DNA of 64,000 nt from Gammaproteobacteria bacterium (GCA_965601665.1 OZ271833.1:2724376-2788375), one strand, 5' to 3'. Shown: positions 1-7,949, counted from the stretch's first letter. Notes: a model not told the origin generated them from the letters alone. Made by a program: numbers and translations.

Positions 1-498
1 TCATACAAGGAAACACAAAGGGGAAGATATCAGTGGGATAAAGTGAAATTAAAATTTCCGGTGGTCGGCGATATCATTTACCGGGCAACCTTGGCAAGGT
101 TTGCACGTTCATTTTCAATGGGTCTTAAGTCAGGTGTGCCGCTGATTCAGGCAATGACGGTTGTTTCCCGATCTGTTGATAATGAATTTATCAGTGAAAA
201 GATACTTGATATGCGTAATGGCATAGAACGTGGTGATTCACTAACCAGAACAGCCGGCATGACCCGTATGTTTACCCCTTTGGTTATTCAAATGCTGTCT
301 GTTGGAGAGGAAACGGGTCAGGTTGACGACATGATGGAAGAAGTTGCTGACTACTATGATCGAGAAGTTGATTACGATATCCAGAACCTGAGTTCAGCAA
401 TAGAACCTGTTGTCATTATTGCCATTGGTGTGATGGTGTTGATTCTGGCGCTGGGCATACTGTTGCCCATGTGGGAGATCTCTACAGTTTTGAAATGA
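1..498 (+). CDS. mshG: T2SS-F/PilC family platform protein, MshG-like (5' partial, frame open from base 1)
   Basis: C-terminal T2SSF repeat (LARFARSFSMGLKSGVPL...VGEETGQVDDMMEEVADYYDREVDY...IEP...LPMW); lies upstream of msh pilin genes. Confidence 0.8.
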   Translation, partial: SYKETQRGRYQWDKVKLKFPVVGDIIYRATLARFARSFSMGLKSGVPLIQAMTVVSRSVDNEFISEKILDMRNGIERGDSLTRTAGMTRMFTPLVIQMLSVGEETGQVDDMMEEVADYYDREVDYDIQNLSSAIEPVVIIAIGVMVLILALGILLPMWEISTVLK

Positions 499-1112
499 TG
501 TACATAGCGCATCGTTGGCGGGATCGTAATCTCAGTCGACTGGAACTTGTGGTTGTATTGTTGTTGTTCGTACTGTTTGTTTTTTTTATATTGCAAAGGG
601 CAATTAATGTGTTTGCAGTAGCGGAAAAAAATTATCTGGACTATACGGTTGCAAATATAGACACTGCGTTGCGCCTGCAATCGCTGATTTACTTTAGTAA
701 TAATAAGCTTGAGGAATTAGGCGAGCTAGTAGATTCAAACCCCATGCGCTTTATGGAACTACAGGAAACAGACGACTTAAAAAGTTTTTATGAAGATACC
801 AGGGGCGCCAAACAGGCGATAGAACAACTATATTCTATTCAACCATCAAATTACCTTGGCGAACTCTTTCGTCCCGATCTGGATAACCTGAAAAAAGGGT
901 CATGGTATTTCGATGTTGAGCTAAAAAAACTTGTTTATATTGTTATTAATACCGAACGTTTTTTTACAAAGCTGGAAGGCAAGAAAAGGATTATTTTTTC
1001 TATCGTATTTGATTATGAAGATATAAACGGCGATGGTATTTTTCAAGAAAAAACCGATATATTTAATCGACTTTTTCTAAAGGCAGATAATAAATATGAA
1101 TGGCTTAACTAG
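495..1112 (+). CDS. MshF-like pilin-like protein with a degenerate class III signal
   Basis: ATG at 495 overlaps the mshG TGA (ATGA); N-terminal LSRLELVVV hydrophobic helix; NPM...NYLGE...GSWYFD pattern resembles MshF-type proteins; position after mshG. Confidence 0.55.
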   Translation: MMYIAHRWRDRNLSRLELVVVLLLFVLFVFFILQRAINVFAVAEKNYLDYTVANIDTALRLQSLIYFSNNKLEELGELVDSNPMRFMELQETDDLKSFYEDTRGAKQAIEQLYSIQPSNYLGELFRPDLDNLKKGSWYFDVELKKLVYIVINTERFFTKLEGKKRIIFSIVFDYEDINGDGIFQEKTDIFNRLFLKADNKYEWLN

Positions 1113-1136: not shown

Positions 1137-1727
1137 ATGGACCTGCAACTAAGTTCGATTATAAAGGAAAGCCTGTATTATTTCAGTATATTGGTGCTGA
1201 TTGTAGGCTTTTTATTACTGCTTTTACCATCCATGTTCATTGAACAATCCGGCAAGTTTAACGCCTGGATAGATACGGATAAATACTTTAACTTTGTTAA
1301 CCGGACGCATACAACAGAACGTAAGTTTTATAAATACAGTCGGTATATAGCGGCCTGCATGTTGGTGCTTTGTTTATATATTCTTTACACGTTAACGATA
1401 GTGATTAGTGATGAAGACGTAGCAAGATTAATCGGTATTAGTTTCTTTTCGAGCATGATCAATGAATGGTTGGCTGAAGCACTACGCTACATACTGATCT
1501 GCTTCAACGTCGTCGCCCTGTTTTTGAGTATTGTGCTGTTAATTCGTCCAAGCGCAATAAAGGGACTGGAAGCAGTAGCAAATACATGGTTCAAAAGCGA
1601 CAGTGCATTACAGGCACTCGATCAATCCTATGACGTGGCAGAAAAGACGATGACGCCACTCAAACTACGAATTATAGGCATGCTGGTCATTATCACATGC
1701 CTGTACATACTGGTTTTCATGTATTAA
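1137..1727 (+). CDS. Hypothetical membrane protein with about 4 TM helices and an internal two-fold repeat
   Basis: GGGAG SD upstream; four hydrophobic segments; two halves share PS..N.W..D...E..R.I...CLYIL. Confidence 0.7.
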   Translation: MDLQLSSIIKESLYYFSILVLIVGFLLLLLPSMFIEQSGKFNAWIDTDKYFNFVNRTHTTERKFYKYSRYIAACMLVLCLYILYTLTIVISDEDVARLIGISFFSSMINEWLAEALRYILICFNVVALFLSIVLLIRPSAIKGLEAVANTWFKSDSALQALDQSYDVAEKTMTPLKLRIIGMLVIITCLYILVFMY

Positions 1728-1885: not shown

Positions 1886-2305
1886 ATGATGAAAAAGCAA
1901 AGTGGTTTTACCTTGATCGAACTGGTCGTGGTGTTTGTCATTCTTGGCATTCTCGCGGCTACTGCTGTTCCACGATTTACTACCGTAACAAACCAGAGTC
2001 GCACGGCCGTCGCTGACGGTATAACTGGATCCATTCAGTCGGCCGCAGTGATTGCATACGCCGCGAACTCGGGCGCAGCCTCGACCGCACAAAATATCGT
2101 ATCGGAAGTAGCGTGCGATACCAGTGAGTCGCCGGTGAATATTAATATTGCCGGTGGTGCTGCAGATATCGTCTGTGATGGTACATTTGGTCAATTAATT
2201 GGCGTGGGTCCTTGCACCGGTACTACTCCAAATACAGTTATCGTGACTGTTGGGGGACAAGCTGGTACCACCAGGAACATCCCTGCTGGATTATGTTCTG
2301 GTTAA
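1886..2305 (+). CDS. mshA: Major type IVa pilin, MshA-like
   Basis: Prepilin motif KQSG|FTLIELVVVFVILGILAATAVPRF; AGAGGA SD; long AT-rich upstream gap and terminator directly downstream, as expected for a highly expressed major pilin. Confidence 0.8.
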   Translation: MMKKQSGFTLIELVVVFVILGILAATAVPRFTTVTNQSRTAVADGITGSIQSAAVIAYAANSGAASTAQNIVSEVACDTSESPVNINIAGGAADIVCDGTFGQLIGVGPCTGTTPNTVIVTVGGQAGTTRNIPAGLCSG

Positions 2306-4146
2306 CCGGTCAAAACCCGGAGAGTACTAGAAAAAACAGGGCGTTGTTGCCCTGTTTTTTTTTGACCCTAGCGTTATTGATCACGCTGGCAGGATCGTTA
2401 TATTTCAGTCATATCCTGCTGTTTTTGCCGCTTGCAATAGGAATCATCTGCATAGCTATTGCTGCAACTGAGCAGGTCAAATGGACATGGTTAACGCTGA
2501 CGCTATGTCTATTTATTATCAATGTGTTTATCAGCATATTCATTTACAGCCCGGTTTATGATGCTGCCGCCGCCTATTATATTTGTTATCTGGTTCTTGG
2601 CTATTTGCTAGCGAGCACCCTGTTAATGAGACATGTGTTGACTCTTTATAAAATCGTTGTATCCGTCTTCCTCGTGTTGTCGGTTTGGGCGCTTGTACAG
2701 CATTTTACCGGCGAGTTTTATTTATCAAAAAGTTCAGCGCCTAATACTATTTTTACAACAAAAAACACCTTTGCAGCCGCACTTAATTTTGTCCTTTTAC
2801 CGATTAGCATTCTTGCTTGTACCAAACATGGTCAACGTTGGCACTATATAGTGACAATAGTACTTTTTTGTGGGCTTCTGGTTTCGATCAGTCGAGGTGC
2901 TTATATTGCTTTCACTGTTGGGTTTATTTTTGTCAGTTTTTATGCATTCCGCTTTGTCAAGTCTTTCAGTCGTAAGCGCTGGTTAATGTTGCTTCTATCC
3001 TTTGTTTGTTTTGTTGGGATGATTAATTTTAACGGCGCTGCATACATGGTGAATCATATTTTCAACGCAGACGAAATAAGCGGTCTTAAAGTGTTGAAGT
3101 TAAATAAAATGGTAAAAGGTAGTTCCTGGAAAGACCGAATTTATTATTATGATATAGCATTCAAGCAGATAAAGGATAGCCCTTTAAAAGGCTATGGCTA
3201 TTTAAACTATAAATATTATTTTCATGTCGACAAATCGCCGGAGCTTTATGGTCAAAATCGCTATGGCGGGTTTGTTCATAATGATTATCTGCAGATTTGG
3301 CTGGAAACCGGACTGATCGGGTTAACTCTATTGATCGTGCTTGTGGGTCTTGTTTATTACTATGTGCATAAAGTTGTATCAACAGGAATGGATTCAAGTG
3401 TCAAGATTACAGCTATTGCAATTGGCGGTGCCTTAACGGCATATTTTATTCATGCACTGGTTGATTTTGTATTATACCCGCCGTTATTGCTGTTACTGTT
3501 TGGATCGTATCTTGCCTATTTAAATCGACTGCTGCCGGAACAGAAAGTCAATTTCAGCAGGTTCGAGGCCGTTTATCACATATTAGGTACAAGGACGATA
3601 CTATTAAAGACTGTTATTGCCACATTATTGTTGGCGTGGTTATCTCAACCGGCTATTGCTGAGGCTTTCTGGTTGGCTGGCAATGATAAAATGCAAAAGC
3701 AGCAATATGGTGAAGCACTGAATCACTACCTGACGGCAATCAATTTCGCAGATTATAACGTCGATTATTATTTTAATGCGGGTCGAATATATTTCACATC
3801 TGCAGAATCAACGGGTAATCGACAGCATGCAAAAGAAGCGGATATGCTTTTTGAACGAGCGTCTGAGGTAAACCAGTTTGAGTATCACAACAGGTTTGCA
3901 CGTATCAAACTGCATCGGGACCATGCTGATTTGCTTGATAATCCTGCAACCAGGGAACAAATTCTGGCGTGGTTTGAGCATATACTCTACTGGCAACCTG
4001 TGCATCAATTTATTATGCAAGAGTATATAAAAACGCTGGTTCAGTTCGAACAAACCGAGTCTGCAAAAATTCAATATAAAGCTTATAGAGACTATTTTCC
4101 CTCTGATGATGAATTGGCTAGACTATTAGAGAAGCAGGTAAAATGA
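2293..4146 (+). CDS. O-antigen ligase family (Wzy_C; WaaL/PglL/TfpO-like O-oligosaccharyltransferase) with C-terminal TPR-like region; start uncertain (ATG 2293 or TTG 2362)
   Basis: Many TM segments; N.FAA.L, SISRGAYI, R..YY.IA...I..SPL.GYG and HNDYLQIWLETGLIG motifs typical of O-antigen ligase family; helical TPR-like tail (ALNHYLTAINFADYNVDYYFNAGRIY). Confidence 0.85.
   Translation: MFWLTGQNPESTRKNRALLPCFFLTLALLITLAGSLYFSHILLFLPLAIGIICIAIAATEQVKWTWLTLTLCLFIINVFISIFIYSPVYDAAAAYYICYLVLGYLLASTLLMRHVLTLYKIVVSVFLVLSVWALVQHFTGEFYLSKSSAPNTIFTTKNTFAAALNFVLLPISILACTKHGQRWHYIVTIVLFCGLLVSISRGAYIAFTVGFIFVSFYAFRFVKSFSRKRWLMLLLSFVCFVGMINFNGAAYMVNHIFNADEISGLKVLKLNKMVKGSSWKDRIYYYDIAFKQIKDSPLKGYGYLNYKYYFHVDKSPELYGQNRYGGFVHNDYLQIWLETGLIGLTLLIVLVGLVYYYVHKVVSTGMDSSVKITAIAIGGALTAYFIHALVDFVLYPPLLLLLFGSYLAYLNRLLPEQKVNFSRFEAVYHILGTRTILLKTVIATLLLAWLSQPAIAEAFWLAGNDKMQKQQYGEALNHYLTAINFADYNVDYYFNAGRIYFTSAESTGNRQHAKEADMLFERASEVNQFEYHNRFARIKLHRDHADLLDNPATREQILAWFEHILYWQPVHQFIMQEYIKTLVQFEQTESAKIQYKAYRDYFPSDDELARLLEKQVK
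2331..2363 (+). terminator. Intrinsic terminator after the major pilin (possibly bidirectional)
   Basis: AAAAAACAGGGC-GTTGTT-GCCCTG followed by T9. Confidence 0.8.
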
Positions 4147-4169: not shown

Positions 4170-4607
4170 ATGAAATGCACAACTATTAATCGCTCGATAG
4201 GTTTTACCCTAATTGAACTAATCATTGTCCTTCTCGTTGCAGCAATTCTTGCGGCAACGGTATTCCCTAACCTTAATATCAATATATTCCGTCAAATTGG
4301 CGGCGTGCAACAGGCAACAGCGGCAATACGTTATGCACAGAAGCAGGCAATTACCAGTGGCTGTCAGGTGGACGTGCAAATTACCAGTTCTAATTGCGCG
4401 TTGAACTGGAATGGCTGTACTGCAGCAGCAATCCTGAATCCGGCGACGGGGGATGCGAACTTTTGTGATAATAGTGACCCAGGTGTAAGCCCTGCTGTTA
4501 GTTTTAGTTTTAATAATATAGGCGTGCCTTCTGCACCACAAACGATCATTTTTTCCAATGGTAGAACGCTCAATGTAGAGGCGAATACGGGTTTCATCTA
4601 TGAATAA
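4170..4607 (+). CDS. mshC: Minor pilin, MshC-like
   Basis: G|FTLIELIIV prepilin motif; AIRYAQKQA and F..IG.P...NVEANTGFI (GspH/FimT/MshC-type); gene order. Confidence 0.7.
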   Translation: MKCTTINRSIGFTLIELIIVLLVAAILAATVFPNLNINIFRQIGGVQQATAAIRYAQKQAITSGCQVDVQITSSNCALNWNGCTAAAILNPATGDANFCDNSDPGVSPAVSFSFNNIGVPSAPQTIIFSNGRTLNVEANTGFIYE

Positions 4608-5175
4608 GCGCGCGACAGGTTTTACGTTACTGGAGTTAATTGTTGCTATTGTTGTGCTGGGCATAGGCGTGGCCGGTTTTGCGCAATTAATCAACACAGC
4701 AACCATAAACAGTGTCGATCCGCAATTGCGTCAGCAGGCACACGCGATTGCGCGTTCGTACCTGGAGGAGATTGCGCTTAAGCCTTTTTGCGATCCGGAT
4801 TTTGATCCGGATGCGGATCCAGCTACCCGTTGTAGTGCCGATTGTAGTGTTTCAGCTTGCACTACTGGTTTCCCCAATGCCTGTGGCGGTCCTAATGAGG
4901 CATCTGGCGGAGAAGGAACCAACCGTGCCTTGTTCGACGATATTTGTGACTTTGTGAATTTGCCAGATAACCTTGTACGCGATCAGAGTAATGTATTAAT
5001 CAGTGCGTTAAGTGATTACCGGGTGACAGTATCAGTAGCTGACGCAACGGGTAATAGCCTAAATGGCCTTAGTTCCGACACCAGTGGACGCTTTGTCAGG
5101 TTTGATGTCAATGTGACAAATACAAACAATAGTAATATTGATGTATCAATCAGTTCATACCGGATCAATTTTTAA
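4600..5175 (+). CDS. mshD: Minor pilin, MshD-like
   Basis: G|FTLLELIV; SVDP..RQQA..IA.SYLEEI..KPF; R..FDD..DF; C-terminal YRINF typical of MshD. Confidence 0.75.
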   Translation: MNKRATGFTLLELIVAIVVLGIGVAGFAQLINTATINSVDPQLRQQAHAIARSYLEEIALKPFCDPDFDPDADPATRCSADCSVSACTTGFPNACGGPNEASGGEGTNRALFDDICDFVNLPDNLVRDQSNVLISALSDYRVTVSVADATGNSLNGLSSDTSGRFVRFDVNVTNTNNSNIDVSISSYRINF

Positions 5176-6068
5176 TGGCGTGTTATCACAAAGGCAGAGT
5201 GTCTAATTTCGGGTTCACATTGCTTGAATTGATAATCGTTATACTCGTTATTTCGATACTCGCAGGTGTGGTGGTGACGATTTTGCGAGGACCGGTACTA
5301 CAGTATGTCCAGGTTGAACAACGTGCCAACCTGGTCGATATTGCTGAAACCGCATTACTAAGAATGACCCGGGAGATTAGACTCGCCTTGCCCAACAGTG
5401 TGCGCATATCAGATGGTAGCCCATTATCAAGTTGTGACATTTCTGTGAATTCGGTATGCGCACTCGAGTTCCTGCGCACGCTGGACGGTGCAAGATACCG
5501 TAAACAGGGTTCCAATCGTCTCAAGTTCAACAGACAAGTTGATACCTTTGAATACTTTGGCACGATGAATAACGCGGGCGCGATCGCTACAGGTGGTTCT
5601 GGTCAATCAGACTGTTATGTAGCCAATGCGACAGTCGATTGCATGGTGGTATTTAACACGGGCCAGGCAGGCGCCAATGCCTATAACTATGATAACCTTG
5701 CCGCAGTCACATCTATTTCTGTTGGTTCGCCAAACCTTTTGGGTTTTAATCTTACACCTGTATTGCGTTTTCCTTATGAGTCTCCAAACCAGCGTTTTTT
5801 TATCGTTGATACCGCTGTCAGTTTTGTCTGCTCCGGTTCAGAGATCAGGCGCTATTTTAACCACTTAATTGAAATTACACAGCGGGCACCGCCGCTAAGC
5901 GGTACTTCTAACCTGTTGGTAAACCAGATCTCTGCATGCACGGTTGATTATGATCCTGGCACGGCAACACGTAGTGGCCTGGTAACACTCGGTATTACTG
6001 TCCGTGATAATGATATTGGTCAGGAAGTGACATTATTGCAACAGGCACATGTTGATAACCAGCCATGA
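5175..6068 (+). CDS. mshO: Minor pilin, MshO-like
   Basis: G|FTLLELII; RMTREIRLALPNSVR; SP.QRFFIV; C-terminal EVTLLQQAHVDNQP typical of MshO. Confidence 0.8.
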   Translation: MACYHKGRVSNFGFTLLELIIVILVISILAGVVVTILRGPVLQYVQVEQRANLVDIAETALLRMTREIRLALPNSVRISDGSPLSSCDISVNSVCALEFLRTLDGARYRKQGSNRLKFNRQVDTFEYFGTMNNAGAIATGGSGQSDCYVANATVDCMVVFNTGQAGANAYNYDNLAAVTSISVGSPNLLGFNLTPVLRFPYESPNQRFFIVDTAVSFVCSGSEIRRYFNHLIEITQRAPPLSGTSNLLVNQISACTVDYDPGTATRSGLVTLGITVRDNDIGQEVTLLQQAHVDNQP

Positions 6069-6493
6069 AAGCAATGAAAAACAGACAAGCCGGATTTAGT
6101 GCAGTCATTGCCATCGTGCTGATCGTCGTGTTTGCTTTACTGGGCTCTTACATGTCGACATTGACAAATGTCAGCGCGGTAAATACGGCTCAATCCGGAC
6201 AATCAATACAGGCATGGTTTGCAGCAAGAACAGGTCTGGAATGGGCGGTCTATGATGCAATTCAAAATGGTGCTGCAGGTCTGAACTGTAATGGAGCTGG
6301 ACCTTCGTTTCCCCTGAGTGGCGGCAGTACAGGGGGCTTCACGATACAGCTTTCCTGTATTTCGACCGCTGTCAACGAGGGGGGCAGTGCGTACAACGTG
6401 TTCAATCTCACGTCTATAGCTTCGAAGAACGCAATCGGCACGGTTACCTATTCATCCAGGACAATCACTGCATCCATTACTGATGCTCCCTAG
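6065..6493 (+). CDS. mshP: Minor pilin, MshP-like (PilX-type, lacks Glu5)
   Basis: QAG|FSAVIAIVLIVV; QAWFAARTGLEWA motif; ATGA coupling to mshO. Confidence 0.75.
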   Translation: MKAMKNRQAGFSAVIAIVLIVVFALLGSYMSTLTNVSAVNTAQSGQSIQAWFAARTGLEWAVYDAIQNGAAGLNCNGAGPSFPLSGGSTGGFTIQLSCISTAVNEGGSAYNVFNLTSIASKNAIGTVTYSSRTITASITDAP

Positions 6494-6953
6494 TGCAACC
6501 GGTATAGCTATTCTGTCGCCAAGCCTCGTAGACAATTATGCTGGCCGCATTGGAAAGGTTCAGACTGCGGCTATCCCCCAGCATGGGAATATGCAGTACC
6601 TGTGTATCTGGAAGGGTGGCAAGGATTTCTACCGGTAAACCTCGTGTTTCGGGACCAAACAGGAAACTGTCGCCTGTCTTGAATCTTCCCATGGAATAAT
6701 CCTGCTGACCGTCGGTTTCAATCGCGAAGAGCGTACCAATGCCTGCGTTATCGAGGTAGTCCTGATAACTTTCATAGTGATGTACAATAGACTGGTCGAT
6801 ATAATCAAGGCCGGCCCTGCGCAGGCTTTTTTCATCCATACCGAAACCCAGTGGGTGGATAAGGTGCAGTTGAGAACCGCTATTTGCACAAAGACGCATG
6901 ATATTCCCGGTGTTGGGGGGTATCTCAGGTTCAAATAACACGATATTAAACAT
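6477..6953 (-). CDS. trmL: tRNA (cytidine/uridine(34)-2'-O)-methyltransferase
   Basis: MFNIVLFEPEIPPNTGNIMRLCAN; FGPETRGLP; SRSLNLSNA SPOUT motifs; start moved to ATG 6953. Confidence 0.95.
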   Translation of the reverse strand: MFNIVLFEPEIPPNTGNIMRLCANSGSQLHLIHPLGFGMDEKSLRRAGLDYIDQSIVHHYESYQDYLDNAGIGTLFAIETDGQQDYSMGRFKTGDSFLFGPETRGLPVEILATLPDTQVLHIPMLGDSRSLNLSNAASIIVYEAWRQNSYTGCTREHQ

Positions 6954-6974
6954 AACCGGATTGTATAGCGCCAG

Positions 6975-7949
6975 ATGACAAACGCCAGCATTAACAAACT
7001 CTCCCTCAGTGATGCGGATAAACAAAAAATCGCCACAGATTTTTGTGGTGTACCGTTTGCCACACCGCTGGTACTCCTATCGGGCTGTGTGGGCTTTGGC
7101 GAGGAATACACACGTATTACCGGTTTTTCCAATACTGATGTTGGCGCTATCTGTTTAAAAGGAACCACTTTGGAGCCGCGATTGGGCAACAGCCCGCATC
7201 GTATTGCTGAAACCTATATGGGTATGTTGAATGCCATTGGTCTACAGAACCCGGGTTCCAAGATCGTCGTTGATGACTATCTGCCCAACCTGGATTTCAC
7301 CGAAACGCGTTTCATCGCCAACCTTTCAGGCTCCACTGTTGAGGAATATGCCGAGGTGACGCGTATCTTTGATGACTCACCAATAGATGCGATGGAAATA
7401 AATATTTCCTGCCCAAACGTCAAGGAAGGCGGGGTAGCCTTTGGCAACGATCCGGATATGTCAGCCCGGGTCGTGGAGGTGTGCCGCAAGGCGACTAGTA
7501 AACCTATTATTACCAAGCTATCTCCTAACCAGACCGATATTGCTGAAAATGCCCGGCGTTGTATTGAAGCGGGTACGGATGGGTTTGCAGTTATCAATAC
7601 GCTGATGGGGATGGCTATTGACATAGAATCGCGTAAACCGATTATCGGTAATAACCAGGGTGGCCTCTCTGGTCCGGCAATCAAACCTATTGCATTGCTA
7701 AAGGTGCACCAGGTTTACCAGGTGGCGAAACAACATGGCGTACCTATTATCGGCCAGGGCGGTATCACCACCGTCGAGGATACGATCGAATTTATCATTG
7801 CCGGCGCTTCGGCTATTGGTATTGGGACAGCACTGTTCTACGAACCGTTGATTTGCCCTCGATTAAACAAGGGTATCGTCGATTACCTGGATAAGCATGG
7901 TATCAACCATGTTTCCGAACTGGTCGGTTCCCTGGAGTTAAATGACTAA
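6975..7949 (+). CDS. pyrD: Dihydroorotate dehydrogenase, class 1 (1B-like catalytic subunit)
   Basis: MLNAIGLQNPG, EINISCPNVK (catalytic Cys), KLSPN, INTL.GMAID, GGLSGPAIKPIAL; no N-terminal membrane/quinone domain. Confidence 0.9.
   Translation: MTNASINKLSLSDADKQKIATDFCGVPFATPLVLLSGCVGFGEEYTRITGFSNTDVGAICLKGTTLEPRLGNSPHRIAETYMGMLNAIGLQNPGSKIVVDDYLPNLDFTETRFIANLSGSTVEEYAEVTRIFDDSPIDAMEINISCPNVKEGGVAFGNDPDMSARVVEVCRKATSKPIITKLSPNQTDIAENARRCIEAGTDGFAVINTLMGMAIDIESRKPIIGNNQGGLSGPAIKPIALLKVHQVYQVAKQHGVPIIGQGGITTVEDTIEFIIAGASAIGIGTALFYEPLICPRLNKGIVDYLDKHGINHVSELVGSLELND

Follow-up and report, generated by a model that had tools for sequence, protein, structure and literature searches.

The window, meaning the whole stretch of DNA that was analysed, comprises 64,000 nt from Gammaproteobacteria bacterium (GCA_965601665.1 OZ271833.1:2724376-2788375), and coordinates are counted from its first letter. 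The following features lie at its start:

1..498, plus strand: 3′ part of an mshG-like platform gene (GspF/PilC family; Pfam T2SSF, 7e-30)
471..1112, plus strand: ORF of 213 aa at the mshF position, without a family match (GC 0.363)
1137..1727, plus strand: ORF of 196 aa, multi-pass membrane protein (no Pfam or NCBIfam family over threshold)
1886..2305, plus strand: major MSHA-type prepilin, 139 aa (Pfam N_methyl, 3e-10)
2293..4146, plus strand: Wzy_C-TPR enzyme of 617 aa, candidate pilin O-oligosaccharyltransferase (Wzy_C, 79.7 bits; AlphaFold2 (AF2) pLDDT 91.2)
2329..2362, plus strand: hairpin and U-run resembling an intrinsic terminator (RNAfold), 24-57 nt past the pilin stop and within enzyme codons 13-24
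3598..3657, plus strand: predicted thirteenth transmembrane helix of the enzyme, about residues 436-455 (hydropathy and positive-inside count)
3658..4146, plus strand: C-terminal TPR-like domain of the enzyme, residues 456-617, eight helices, predicted periplasmic (TPR_11, PDB profiles, structure match)
4170..4607, plus strand: mshC-like minor pilin (N_methyl and GspH; syntenic in relatives, 42-49% identity)
4600..5175, plus strand: mshD-like minor pilin (N_methyl; PilV-like by NCBIfam; 43-55% identity to relatives)
5175..6068, plus strand: mshO-like minor pilin (N_methyl)
6065..6493, plus strand: mshP-like gene, the last of the operon (syntenic in relatives, 42-50% identity)

The mshG-like gene, complete in genome stretch L169, encodes 407 aa with 79-83% identity to relatives. 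The 213-aa ORF that follows has no match in Pfam or NCBIfam, and its relatives at the same position share 32-36% identity. A counterpart of the 196-aa ORF is found between mshG and the pilin gene in several relatives (27-34% identity). Behind the mshP-like gene there is a convergent SpoU-type methylase gene, and no mshQ-like gene follows at the locus. Upstream in the genome are an MshL equivalog (TIGR02519, 262.1 bits against a cut-off of 250.2), an MshE-type ATPase with a c-di-GMP-binding domain (NF053729, 74.2 against 38) and MshM/N-like genes, while the minor pilins C-D-O-P lie downstream of the enzyme gene. The label “MSHA-type”, already given to this pilus in an earlier sequence-only reading, is justified by the MshL equivalog and the MshE-type ATPase.

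Every element named in that reading was found where it had been placed, including an enzyme gene inserted between the mshA-like and mshC-like genes. It had also been remarked that no LPS core or O-antigen genes are nearby. This holds: all of the large ORFs in the remainder of the window (26/26) are housekeeping genes, and the 13.5 kb upstream of the window contain msh genes only. No glycan-synthesis genes are present in the locus over the window and these 13.5 kb. The enzyme gene is as AT-rich as it had appeared, with a GC content of 0.396 compared with 0.473 for the window.

The ORF ending at 4146 holds the two motifs by which it had been assigned to the O-antigen-ligase family, SISRGA and HNDYLQIWLETGLIG. 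The profile search proposed for this gene returned Pfam Wzy_C (PF04932) at 2.5e-22, with 79.7 bits against a cut-off of 31.7, and no NCBIfam family at E up to 0.01. The AF2 model of the enzyme has a pLDDT of 91.2 and a pTM of 0.91. Its core, model residues 13-416, is matched best by the O-antigen ligase structure WaaL 7tpj_B (VIA-align Z 25.1, rmsd 5.7, 353 residues aligned), and Foldseek retrieved 7tpg_B at 8.5e-7. WaaL is likewise the nearest solved protein when a sequence profile is compared with the PDB (7tpg, 1.6e-6); a phmmer search of the PDB with the core as a single sequence gave nothing at E up to 10. The PglL-type structure 9rmk_A, which a PglL_A-type protein retrieves at 5.6e-29, is absent from the best 60 of the enzyme's 88 profile matches. 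It is also missing from the Foldseek and VIA-align lists, whose libraries may lack it.

The catalytic residues of E. coli WaaL, R215/R288/H338, align with R201/R282/H329 of the enzyme. In 79 homologues R282, G300, G302, H329, D331 and Q334 are invariant and R201 is conserved in at least 90%; the family-specific motif in the enzyme is H-N-D-Y-L-Q. Additional positions, N158, G300-x-G302, H387 and D391, match residues reported in the text of PMC3643930 as specific to PglL. Six PglL_A-type reference proteins share the N158, GxG and H-x3-acidic positions, whereas E. coli WaaL is without them. From the PglL set of that paper (Nm Q178, N180, G316, G318, H400, E404 and P406, mapped from the paper's text and not from the Neisseria sequence), the enzyme shares N158, G300, G302 and H387. 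It has D391 in place of Glu and Thr in place of Gln, and the alignment at the Pro position is ambiguous. The domains of PglL-type enzymes are absent: PglL_A (PF15864) is not found in the enzyme even at E up to 10 and has 0 matches in the genome, and Wzy_C_2 (PF11846) has no match in the enzyme. Both domains are present in 6/6 of the PglL_A-type reference proteins scanned, and Wzy_C_2 appears below threshold (about 17 bits) in three more distant msh-linked relatives.

Beyond this core, the AF2 model contains a long helix (residues 435-468) at the predicted thirteenth membrane helix, followed by the suspected TPR-like tail. The tail is supported by a PDB profile search, in which consensus TPR proteins are found at E 2e-9, and by structure: residues 448-617 of the model match the TPR domain of OGT with Z 16.6 (rmsd 3.1, 155 aligned; VIA-align) and the type IV pilus protein PilF with Z 14.0. 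The Pfam match to TPR_11 (1.1e-5, 25.4 bits) is slightly below its cut-off of 26.8. The whole length of the tail is conserved in homologues. The count of about 13 membrane helices, together with the positive-inside pattern, is predicted to place the tail outside the membrane, in the periplasm.

The product of 1886-2305 is the short four-cysteine pilin that had been described. In its mature form it has 132 aa, 4 Cys and 26 Ser+Thr, contains the Ser/Thr-bearing stretches ANSGAASTAQ and GPCTGTTPNT, and terminates in ...GLCSG. The pilins encoded ahead of related enzymes are its homologues (39-55% identity). In its AF2 model, a helix (residues 10-60) is followed by a loop at 61-67 (NSGAAST) and then by beta strands. 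Two candidate acceptors may be proposed: the Ser that immediately follows the final Cys (C-S-G), or a Ser/Thr patch just behind helix alpha-1 (mature S55/S59/T60). At the position next to the final Cys, Ser or Thr is present in 28 of 39 cognate pilins, the remainder having mostly Asn (6) and Ile (2), and 0-3 residues lie beyond this position. No Ser/Thr is invariant across the 39 pilins. A relative of the same family that has the enzyme carries a pilin ending in CGG, the Methylobacter pilin L053 has no Ser/Thr in the patch after alpha-1, and C-T-G ends also occur in msh loci that are without the enzyme.

The junction of the pilin and enzyme genes is compact. The start codon of the enzyme is likely ATG 2293, giving a 13-nt overlap with the last codons of the pilin, and its closest homologue (79% identity) starts likewise. 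Two other start codons were rejected. TTG 2212 would place the start 94 nt within the pilin gene, and homologues begin close to the stop codon of the pilin. With TTG 2362, after the hairpin, the first membrane helix would be left with only 13 residues; conservation at the protein level also covers the region ahead of this codon, and 33 of 38 junctions have an in-frame start before the hairpin.

The hairpin itself consists of a 13-bp GC-rich stem and a U9 run, in a 100-nt stretch that folds at -37.4 kcal/mol (z -4.2; RNAfold). A hairpin and U-run occur in all 13 of the 13 junctions folded. A strict hairpin script, which misses the window's own hairpin, detects one in 32/47 junctions against 18/374 control windows; a looser script based on RNAfold has a high background (56/327). 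The hairpin is always translated in the enzyme frame, as K-[KR]-[GA]..P-[LF]-F, and its position inside the first codons of the enzyme is conserved across phyla. Expression of the enzyme may thus be coupled to that of the pilin by the overlapping ATG and the terminator hairpin within codons 13-24. It is proposed that, with the hairpin and the overlap placed in this way, only read-through transcripts would yield the enzyme and the minor pilins. Such attenuation, by a terminator that doubles as coding sequence, would be a compact way of setting the pilin:enzyme ratio.

The arrangement is widespread. A first survey covered 78 species-level loci that contain a relative, and in 46 of them a prepilin gene lies at most 300 nt upstream on the same strand. 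Eight of the 78 loci are cut off at the 5′ end of the enzyme, so that a pilin lies directly upstream in 46 of 70 assessable loci. Genes like mshC/D/O/P also follow in 37/68 full-size rows. Many related loci show an overlap of 4-20 nt between the pilin's end and the enzyme's start, and in nearly all loci it is the major pilin, not a minor pilin, that directly precedes the enzyme gene. As the arrangement recurs in dozens of species, it is not a chance neighbourhood, and the pilin linkage is conserved across classes.

The survey of msh loci suggested by the sequence-only reading was carried out on an independent class-wide sample with MshO as the probe, which matched in 92 of 400 class genomes and gave 55 complete msh loci. 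A Wzy_C gene lies between the pilin gene and mshO in 12 of these, from 10 families, and none is present in 38; the gene is therefore dispensable for the pilus. C-terminal TPR matches were obtained in 12/13 of the more distant msh-locus enzymes. Presence of the enzyme gene varies within one genus, and in close relatives the enzyme is only about 30% identical compared with about 80% for MshG. In the relative L123, a further copy is located between mshC and mshD.

Co-variation of the pilin with the inserted gene had been put forward as a check. None was found in Ser/Thr content, which is alike whether the enzyme accompanies the pilin (0.190, n=12) or not (0.181, n=37), and Ser/Thr at residues 51-68 and in the last 12 residues likewise shows no difference. 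The related idea of an exchangeable cassette for evasion of phages or predators is only suggested. Patchy presence, fast divergence and low GC are consistent with it; against it, no mobility genes were seen and the co-variation is absent.

Two trees were calculated: a FastTree of 95 rows, and a core-only IQ-TREE (LG+G4, quick) of 45 author-chosen rows with the tail columns removed. In the former, the window's enzyme belongs to a clade of 43 rows with a support of 99. This clade contains 35 msh-linked rows, four pilin-adjacent rows, the window's enzyme, its paralogue, L012 (with a divergent pilin) and L013 (cut at the 5′ end); all assessable members are pilin-linked. In the core-only tree the corresponding clade, again with 99, has 17 rows, every one pilin-linked, and the PglL_A rows are separate. 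E. coli WaaL, the sole named WaaL included and on a long branch, lies far across both trees from the enzyme, which groups with it in neither.

Nor is the enzyme the genome's only WaaL candidate, a possibility named beforehand as one that would count against a pilin-modifying role, as four Wzy_C genes exceed the cut-off. One of these is the paralogue, which shares 31% identity over its full length including the tail and lies beside a type IV filament locus. Another is adjoined by a Bac_transf phosphoglycosyl transferase and an epimerase. With two Glycos_transf_4 genes also in the genome, a donor pathway appears to be present, judging from these gene families.

Several known enzymes bear comparison. 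The TfpO, TfpM and many PglL genes adjoin their pilin gene (PMC9829042, PMC3643930). TfpO (PilO; P. aeruginosa group I and Acinetobacter) and TfpM (Moraxellaceae) are described in the consulted text of PMC9829042 as dedicated enzymes, likewise of the Wzy_C superfamily and encoded directly downstream of the cognate pilin. Their genes are accessory and present in some strains only, like the enzyme gene here, and the near-C-terminal Ser after the pilin's last Cys recalls their C-terminal acceptor. That acceptor is reported to be the very last residue of the pilin, with added residues blocking TfpO (PMC9829042), whereas 0-3 residues follow the candidate Ser/Thr here. The enzyme is further set apart from TfpO and TfpM, by description, through its 617 aa and TPR tail, and it sits in an MSHA-type locus while they serve type IVa PilA pili.

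The PglL/PglO enzymes of Neisseria and others, the type to which 9rmk_A belongs, are of similar length (550-620 aa). In them, as in the enzyme here, the Wzy_C core is followed by additional membrane helices and by a periplasmic part at the C-terminus, and they share its Arg/Arg/His triad and its N, GxG and H-x3-acidic residues. In PMC3643930, 21 of 31 pglL genes are reported to adjoin pilin genes. The enzyme differs from the PglL_A type in lacking PglL_A and Wzy_C_2, in its separate position in both trees, in having Asp for Glu and in its TPR-like tail.

TfpW of P. aeruginosa group IV agrees with the enzyme in overall layout. It is reported as a pilin-modifying membrane glycosyltransferase of 646 aa, encoded right after pilA, whose C-terminus forms a large TPR domain in the periplasm that can be modelled on the TPR of O-GlcNAc transferase (bioRxiv 10.1101/2020.04.19.049825). 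The OGT TPR is the best match of the tail here too. TfpW, however, is described as having a GT-C (ArnT/Emb-like) core with a DDX motif, D-arabinofuranose donors and 11 predicted membrane helices, whereas the core of the enzyme is WaaL-like. The resemblance is one of design, not descent.

WaaL (E. coli K-12 b3622; Cupriavidus 7tpg/7tpj) has the same core fold and the same Arg/Arg/His triad. It is about 400-420 aa long (419 aa in E. coli), without the thirteenth helix and the tail of about 160 residues that bring the enzyme to 617 aa, and it is without the GxG and H-x3-acidic residues. Its acceptor is the lipid A-core. The E. coli waaL gene is encoded among LPS core genes, while the enzyme gene has no LPS neighbours.

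The enzyme most likely adds sugars to the pilin, since it is encoded directly behind the pilin gene, here and in many environmental bacteria. On the evidence of sequence and predicted structure, the main reading, with a probability of roughly 0.7, is that of a pilin-dedicated O-oligosaccharyltransferase of an undescribed Wzy_C-TPR class. The interpretation given at the outset is thus upheld in part. Its core, a pilin-dedicated O-glycosylation enzyme of the WaaL/PglL/TfpO superfamily, is well backed by comparison: linkage, triad, predicted periplasmic tail, the other WaaL candidates and trees speak for it. The acceptor is a candidate only, with Ser/Thr after the last Cys in 28 of the 39 cognate pilins.

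Other readings of the gene have to be weighed against this one. It could encode a general PglL-like O-oligosaccharyltransferase with many periplasmic or membrane substrates, with the pilin as one of them or none, and with a position in the msh locus that is historical. The N158, GxG and H387-x3-D391 residues common to PglL_A-type proteins are in keeping with this, and the genome has no PglL_A-type enzyme, so that the role of a general O-oligosaccharyltransferase is vacant. In addition, the V. cholerae pglL is upstream of the msh operon yet is reported to act broadly (PMC6901666). Such an enzyme is nevertheless unlikely given the very tight pilin linkage, which extends to all assessable members of the 43-row clade and includes the overlaps of 4-20 nt, and given a presence that differs within one genus. 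The retention of two paralogues, with a separate type IV filament locus next to each, would also suit dedicated enzymes better.

It is highly improbable that the gene encodes a WaaL, or a polymerase or ligase of the Wzy type, that works on LPS or some other lipid-linked polysaccharide of the cell surface and has nothing to do with the pilin. WaaL does provide the best profile and fold matches among solved structures as well as the triad, and an alternative WaaL candidate in the genome (L003) is missing the first Arg in the alignment. The length of 617 aa, the extra membrane helix and the TPR domain are at odds with a WaaL of 419 aa such as that of E. coli, and there are no LPS genes in the window or the 13.5 kb upstream. 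Moreover, three other Wzy_C genes are available, one of them beside the phosphoglycosyl transferase and epimerase, and the position away from E. coli WaaL in both trees is accompanied by pilin synteny conserved over classes. TPR domains often serve as assembly scaffolds, and the tail has PilF as one of its structural matches; the protein might accordingly be a transferase-inactive membrane scaffold or chaperone for MSHA assembly, acting through its TPR domain. Alternatively, it might modify the minor pilins (MshC/D/O/P-like) and not the major one, as the gene precedes four minor pilin genes and the second copy in L123 is found between mshC and mshD. Very little weight is given to this pair of roles. 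Catalytic residues that are invariant or nearly so in 79 homologues favour an active enzyme, the 38 of 55 msh loci without the gene show that it is not a core assembly factor, and the gene is directly behind the major pilin in nearly all loci.

Under the preferred reading, a pilin-dedicated O-oligosaccharyltransferase, the protein would be an inner-membrane enzyme with a WaaL/PglL-type core, whose thirteenth helix would put a four-repeat TPR-like domain in the periplasm. The donor would be a glycan that gene products encoded elsewhere in the genome assemble on undecaprenyl pyrophosphate and that is then flipped into the periplasm. This glycan would be moved en bloc to a Ser/Thr of the membrane-anchored MSHA major pilin before assembly. 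The TPR tail may hold the globular domain of the pilin while the Arg201/Arg282/His329 site handles the lipid-linked donor.

A wider proposal, for which the odds are judged to be about even, is that the Wzy_C-TPR enzymes represent a fifth family of bacterial protein O-oligosaccharyltransferases, so far undescribed. In environmental Gammaproteobacteria (including Burkholderiales) and Nitrospirota they would constitute an accessory module of long standing for pili of the MSHA type and other type IV pili. The periplasmic TPR domain would select the pilin and so allow a non-terminal Ser/Thr to be glycosylated. The dose would be set by the dual-use terminator, which would also encode the positively charged N-terminus and the start of the first helix. 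Variety at the pilus surface would arise from frequent loss, replacement and rapid divergence.

In the literature found, glycosylation of MSHA-type pili is only speculated upon (passages of PMC6901666). No O-antigen-ligase/TPR enzyme was found described in msh loci in a literature search in which some results were swamped by mycothiol msh genes. The consulted text of PMC9829042 gives PglL, PglS, TfpO and TfpM as the only O-linking tools for glycoengineering. Glycoengineers would be interested in a new class of O-oligosaccharyltransferase whose acceptor-binding domain is separate and whose cognate pilin is short. If the class is active, about a quarter of the MSHA-type loci in environmental Gammaproteobacteria would produce sugar-coated pili. 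This would have a bearing on how methanotrophs, sulfur oxidisers and Burkholderiales attach to surfaces, form biofilms and are recognised by phages.

The 617-aa Wzy_C-TPR protein encoded directly behind the major pilin gene (hereafter the enzyme) is, at a probability of roughly 0.7, an O-oligosaccharyltransferase dedicated to that pilin, belonging to a Wzy_C-TPR class that is absent from the literature searched. The elements described in the sequence-only reading were all found to be present in the window.

Genes of the MSHA-type locus (window coordinates), and two further Wzy_C genes in stretches L168 and L004 of the same genome
1-498, + strand: mshG-like gene, 3′ part, with a T2SSF match
471-1112, + strand: ORF of 213 aa in the mshF position, without family
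1137-1727, + strand: ORF of 196 aa, multi-pass, without family
1886-2305, + strand: prepilin, 139 aa
ending at 4146, + strand: long ORF (the enzyme)
4170-6493, + strand: four prepilin-type genes in the order mshC, D, O, P, with GspH/PilV-like minor pilin matches
L168:8254-10101, − strand: second Wzy_C-TPR gene of the genome (the paralogue)
L004:1303-3324, − strand: LPG_synthase_TM-Wzy_C fusion of at least 673 aa, a lysyl-phosphatidylglycerol-synthase-type membrane domain plus Wzy_C

The 13.5 kb upstream of the window hold a PilM-like gene with three small genes, an MshL secretin that scores 262 bits with TIGR02519 (cut-off 250), an MshM-like ATPase, a TPR protein at the MshN position and an MshE-type ATPase followed by mshG. 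The c-di-GMP-binding domain of this last ATPase clears its cut-off of 38 with 74 bits. Because the MshL, MshE-type and MshM/N-like genes lie upstream, this is a true MSHA-type pilus locus. At its other end there is no mshQ-like gene behind mshP (6493-6500), and a convergent SpoU-type methylase ORF (6477-7025, − strand) overlaps the end of mshP. The remainder of the window is housekeeping in all 26 large ORFs scanned (rpoBC, ribosomal proteins, EF-Tu/G, secY, trkAH and an ntrYX-like pair). None of the 26 is an LPS or O-antigen gene, which agrees with the earlier statement that no such genes are nearby.

The HMM search proposed for the enzyme returned Pfam Wzy_C at 79.7 bits (cut-off 31.7) and TPR_11 slightly under its cut-off; NCBIfam holds no model for it. 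Translation most likely starts at the ATG at 2293, which gives a 13-nt overlap with the end of the pilin gene. The nearest homologue (79% identity) starts likewise, and the peptide after the start is conserved even in distant homologues. An AlphaFold2 model built from 79 homologues (pLDDT 91.2, pTM 0.91) places thirteen long helices in residues 19-468, three short helices in a large loop at 250-339 and eight additional helices in residues 472-616. In this model the core resembles WaaL (7tpj_B: Z 25.1, rmsd 5.7 over 353 residues; Foldseek 7tpg_B, 8.5e-7). The modelled C-terminal tail resembles TPR domains, both that of OGT (Z 16.6, rmsd 3.1 over 155 residues) and those of consensus TPR proteins (TM ~0.8). 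Hydropathy and the distribution of Lys and Arg fit a topology in which the N-terminus is cytoplasmic, the 250-339 loop lies outside and the thirteenth helix leads into a periplasmic tail. In WaaL there are 12 helices, and both termini are cytoplasmic.

[quoted passage not shown] R282, G300, G302, H329, D331, Q334 and G340 are invariant in the 79 homologues, and R201, H387 and D391 are conserved to 90% or more. The same paper also lists residues conserved in PglL and absent from WaaL (PMC3643930), and the enzyme has counterparts of these in N158, G300-x-G302 and H387-x3-D391. In the alignment, E. coli WaaL lacks the N, the GxG and the H-x3-acidic residues. Six PglL-family proteins of PglL_A type from the class sample possess them too, with E replacing D. 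The domains PglL_A and Wzy_C_2 were both present in 6/6 reference proteins scanned and gave no match in the enzyme at E up to 10. PDB 9rmk_A is a protein of the PglL_A type.

The placement of the enzyme was assessed with a FastTree of 95 Wzy_C proteins, comprising the full-size rows of both locus surveys (see below), four proteins of the same genome, seven PglL_A-type proteins and E. coli WaaL. The enzyme falls in a clade of 43 rows with 99% local support, which contains 35 msh-linked and 4 pilin-adjacent proteins, the enzyme, the paralogue and two further loci. One of these (L012) has a pilin-like match ~700 nt upstream on the opposite strand, and the other (L013) is truncated at the 5′ side. 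The opposite side of the tree is taken by the PglL_A-type proteins, E. coli WaaL and the fusion protein. Since the shared tail could draw tail-bearing proteins together, a core-only tree was built (IQ-TREE quick, LG+G4, 45 hand-chosen rows, tail columns dropped). Here the enzyme belongs to a 17-row clade with 99% support, 17/17 of its rows being pilin-linked; the PglL_A rows are separate (94%) and E. coli WaaL is weakly grouped with two other proteins of the genome. Grouping with WaaL, the outcome that would have counted against a pilin-directed role, is thus seen in neither tree, as E. coli WaaL stays outside the 99% clade of the enzyme in both. The enzyme is placed beside the group of the paralogue with 88-94% support in the two trees. 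Other msh-linked enzymes form a second, looser group, intermixed with proteins without pilin context. Both trees are limited by long branches and by references confined to PglL_A-type proteins and E. coli WaaL, with no named TfpO, TfpM or PglS among them.

The enzyme could also have been the only WaaL candidate of its host. This was rejected, as the genome (2.85 Mb, a single contig) holds four Wzy_C genes above cut-off, three besides the enzyme, and two weak ones. The paralogue (615 aa) is 31% identical to the enzyme along its whole length, tail included. Its gene is arranged head to head with a further type IV filament locus (L168:10714-16956, + strand), which encodes three unusually long pilin-like proteins (319, 220 and 325 aa), two family-less ORFs of 582 and 225 aa and a T2SSE ATPase of 370 aa. 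The third Wzy_C protein (414 aa) adjoins a glycosyltransferase-like gene. The neighbours of the fusion gene are an NAD-dependent epimerase and a small Bac_transf phosphoglycosyl transferase (C1:1144778-1145287), and the fusion protein may be the true O-antigen ligase of the genome or another glycan ligase. No PglL_A-type enzyme was found in the genome.

Four families of O-linking oligosaccharyltransferases have been described: TfpO, TfpM, PglL and PglS (PMC9829042). The enzyme resembles TfpO and TfpM in that its gene lies behind its pilin gene, but it is ~150-200 residues longer, carries a TPR tail and is paired with a pilin that has no terminal Ser/Thr. The earlier remark that the TfpO end rule cannot hold literally therefore stands. 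With PglL it shares a size of ~600 aa and the PglL-type residues, but it lacks PglL_A and Wzy_C_2 and forms a separate group in the trees. The closest in layout is TfpW, whose gene comes after pilA and whose C-terminal part is a periplasmic TPR domain (bioRxiv 10.1101/2020.04.19.049825); its core, however, is of GT-C type. The paper that places V. cholerae pglL upstream of the msh operon treats MSHA glycosylation only as a speculation (PMC6901666). The accessible part of a 2026 paper on the Shewanella MshA structure mentions glycosylation for flagellin only (PMC13334000). In full-text searches of the literature, supplements aside, no description was found of an msh-locus enzyme of the Wzy_C-TPR type or of a glycosylated MSHA pilin.

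The pilin-enzyme arrangement is widespread. A first survey, with one genome per species, retrieved relatives of the enzyme by a 10-sequence profile and gave 78 loci, 8 of them cut at the 5′ end of the enzyme; in 46/78 a same-strand prepilin gene ends at most 300 nt upstream. An ORF of 480 aa or more is present in 68 rows. Of these, 37 combine an upstream pilin with mshC/D/O/P-like genes downstream, 6 show just the pilin, 1 has msh genes in the vicinity and 24 are without pilin context. Carriers include Methylobacter (with M. tundripaludum, L035), Methylophilaceae, many Burkholderiales/Betaproteobacteria MAGs, Acidiferrobacterales, Sulfurifustaceae and unclassified Gammaproteobacteria. In two Nitrospirae MAGs the enzyme is preceded by a pair of pilin genes, with no msh genes seen. 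The wider family is sizeable: 274 representatives at 50% clustering match the profile at E up to 1e-30.

The second survey was independent of the enzyme. An MshO-like probe matched in 92/400 class-sampled genomes, from which 75 loci with (near) full-length matches were taken and 16 genomes with short N-terminal matches left out. The proposed survey of msh loci for the insertion bore out its recurrence: among the 55 stretches that span mshG through mshO, a Wzy_C gene lies between pilin and mshO in 12 (10 families), between mshG and pilin in 2 (one family) and past mshP on the other strand in 3 (one family), and none is present in 38 (31 families). In the same 400 genomes PglL_A-type enzymes occur in only 7. 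C-terminal TPR matches were found in 12/13 of the more distant msh-linked enzymes. Presence varies inside one genus (L094 with the enzyme, L090 without); one family has it in 1/3 genomes, and L089, a fairly close relative with an MshG 71% identical, is without it.

Several loci depart from the common layout. In one msh locus (L123) two Wzy_C-TPR genes occur, behind the major pilin and between mshC and mshD (oriented positions 3801 and 6493); as nearest relatives of each other in the tree, they point to a local duplication. In a Methylobacter MAG, a short pilin gene and a Wzy_C-TPR gene lie 234 nt apart past mshP (L018:7375-9647), and the msh operon proper has pilins without such an enzyme; this looks like a displaced pilin-enzyme pair. 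In three loci of one family (L098, L099, L101) a Wzy_C gene is convergent just past mshP; the tail profile is matched and the stretches end within the gene.

Identity of locus products to those of close relatives
MshG: 79-83% (L089, 71%)
MshC-P: 42-55%
Pilin: 36-52%
Enzyme: 30-31%
ORF 471-1112: 32-36%
ORF 1137-1727: 27-34%

The syntenic enzyme of a same-genus genome is no closer to the enzyme than its own paralogue is. Its gene had been noted as AT-rich, and its GC content is indeed 0.396 against 0.473 for the window. The two ORFs ahead of the pilin are also AT-richer (0.36-0.39) and are 27-36% identical where MshG is ~80% identical, thus the fast-evolving stretch exceeds pilin plus enzyme. 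Low identity, low GC and patchy presence fit a fast-evolving accessory module that would often be lost or replaced. No mobility genes were seen at the locus. Selection on the module by phages or predators is a speculation.

The 39 pilins encoded upstream of members of the 43-row clade align well with the pilin of the window (132 aa when mature, ending CSG) and are short, with 103-132 mature residues. Their last Cys is conserved in 39/39 and is followed by Ser or Thr in 28/39, otherwise mostly by N (6) or I (2), with 0-3 residues beyond. A Ser/Thr-rich patch past helix alpha-1 (mature 54-62, NSGAASTAQ in the pilin of the window) forms, in a model of pLDDT 79, the loop directly behind the long helix. 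The Neisseria acceptor occupies this position. The Ser/Thr after the last Cys, Ser131 in the mature pilin of the window, and this patch with S55, S59 and T60 are candidate acceptors. Neither site is invariant: an enzyme-bearing relative of the same family ends CGG, and the patch of a Methylobacter locus (L053) has no Ser/Thr. The co-variation of pilin with enzyme that had been proposed did not emerge from Ser/Thr content, which is 0.190 in pilins with the enzyme (n=12) vs 0.181 in those without (n=37), and the pilin C-terminal ends are near-identical in L094, which has the enzyme, and L090, which lacks it.

Just past the pilin stop, at 2329-2362, a GC-rich hairpin of 13 bp precedes a run of nine U's, and the 100-nt stretch folds at -37.4 kcal/mol (z -4.2). 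In the enzyme gene the hairpin occupies codons 13-24, which read R-K-N-R-A-L-L-P-C-F-F-L. The hairpin is present in 13/13 pilin-enzyme junctions folded, from Gammaproteobacteria, Methylobacter, Burkholderiales and Nitrospirae MAGs. A strict pattern script found it in 32/47 junctions vs 18/374 control windows inside enzyme genes; as this script misses the hairpin of the window itself, 32 is a floor. A looser RNAfold-based script gave 38/47 junctions vs 56/327 controls, with an in-frame start codon upstream of the hairpin in 33 of the 38. The reading register is constant, the A/G-rich 5′ arm encoding K-[KR]-[GA] and the 3′ arm with the U-run P-[LF]-F-F. Stem sequences vary by lineage (e.g. GGGCG/CGCCC vs GGGGGC/GCCCCC) yet remain paired. 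The hairpin may accordingly be read as a dual-use sequence: a predicted intrinsic terminator or 3′-end stabiliser of the pilin mRNA that would also encode the positively charged cytoplasmic start of the enzyme and the onset of its first membrane helix (19-36 in the model). The predicted outcome would be abundant pilin mRNA, with few transcripts reading through to the genes of the enzyme and the minor pilins.

Pilin-adjacent Wzy_C transferases are a well-known concept. What the probable pilin-dedicated transferase would add is its architecture, its MSHA context, the breadth of its distribution and the putative terminator embedded in its first codons.
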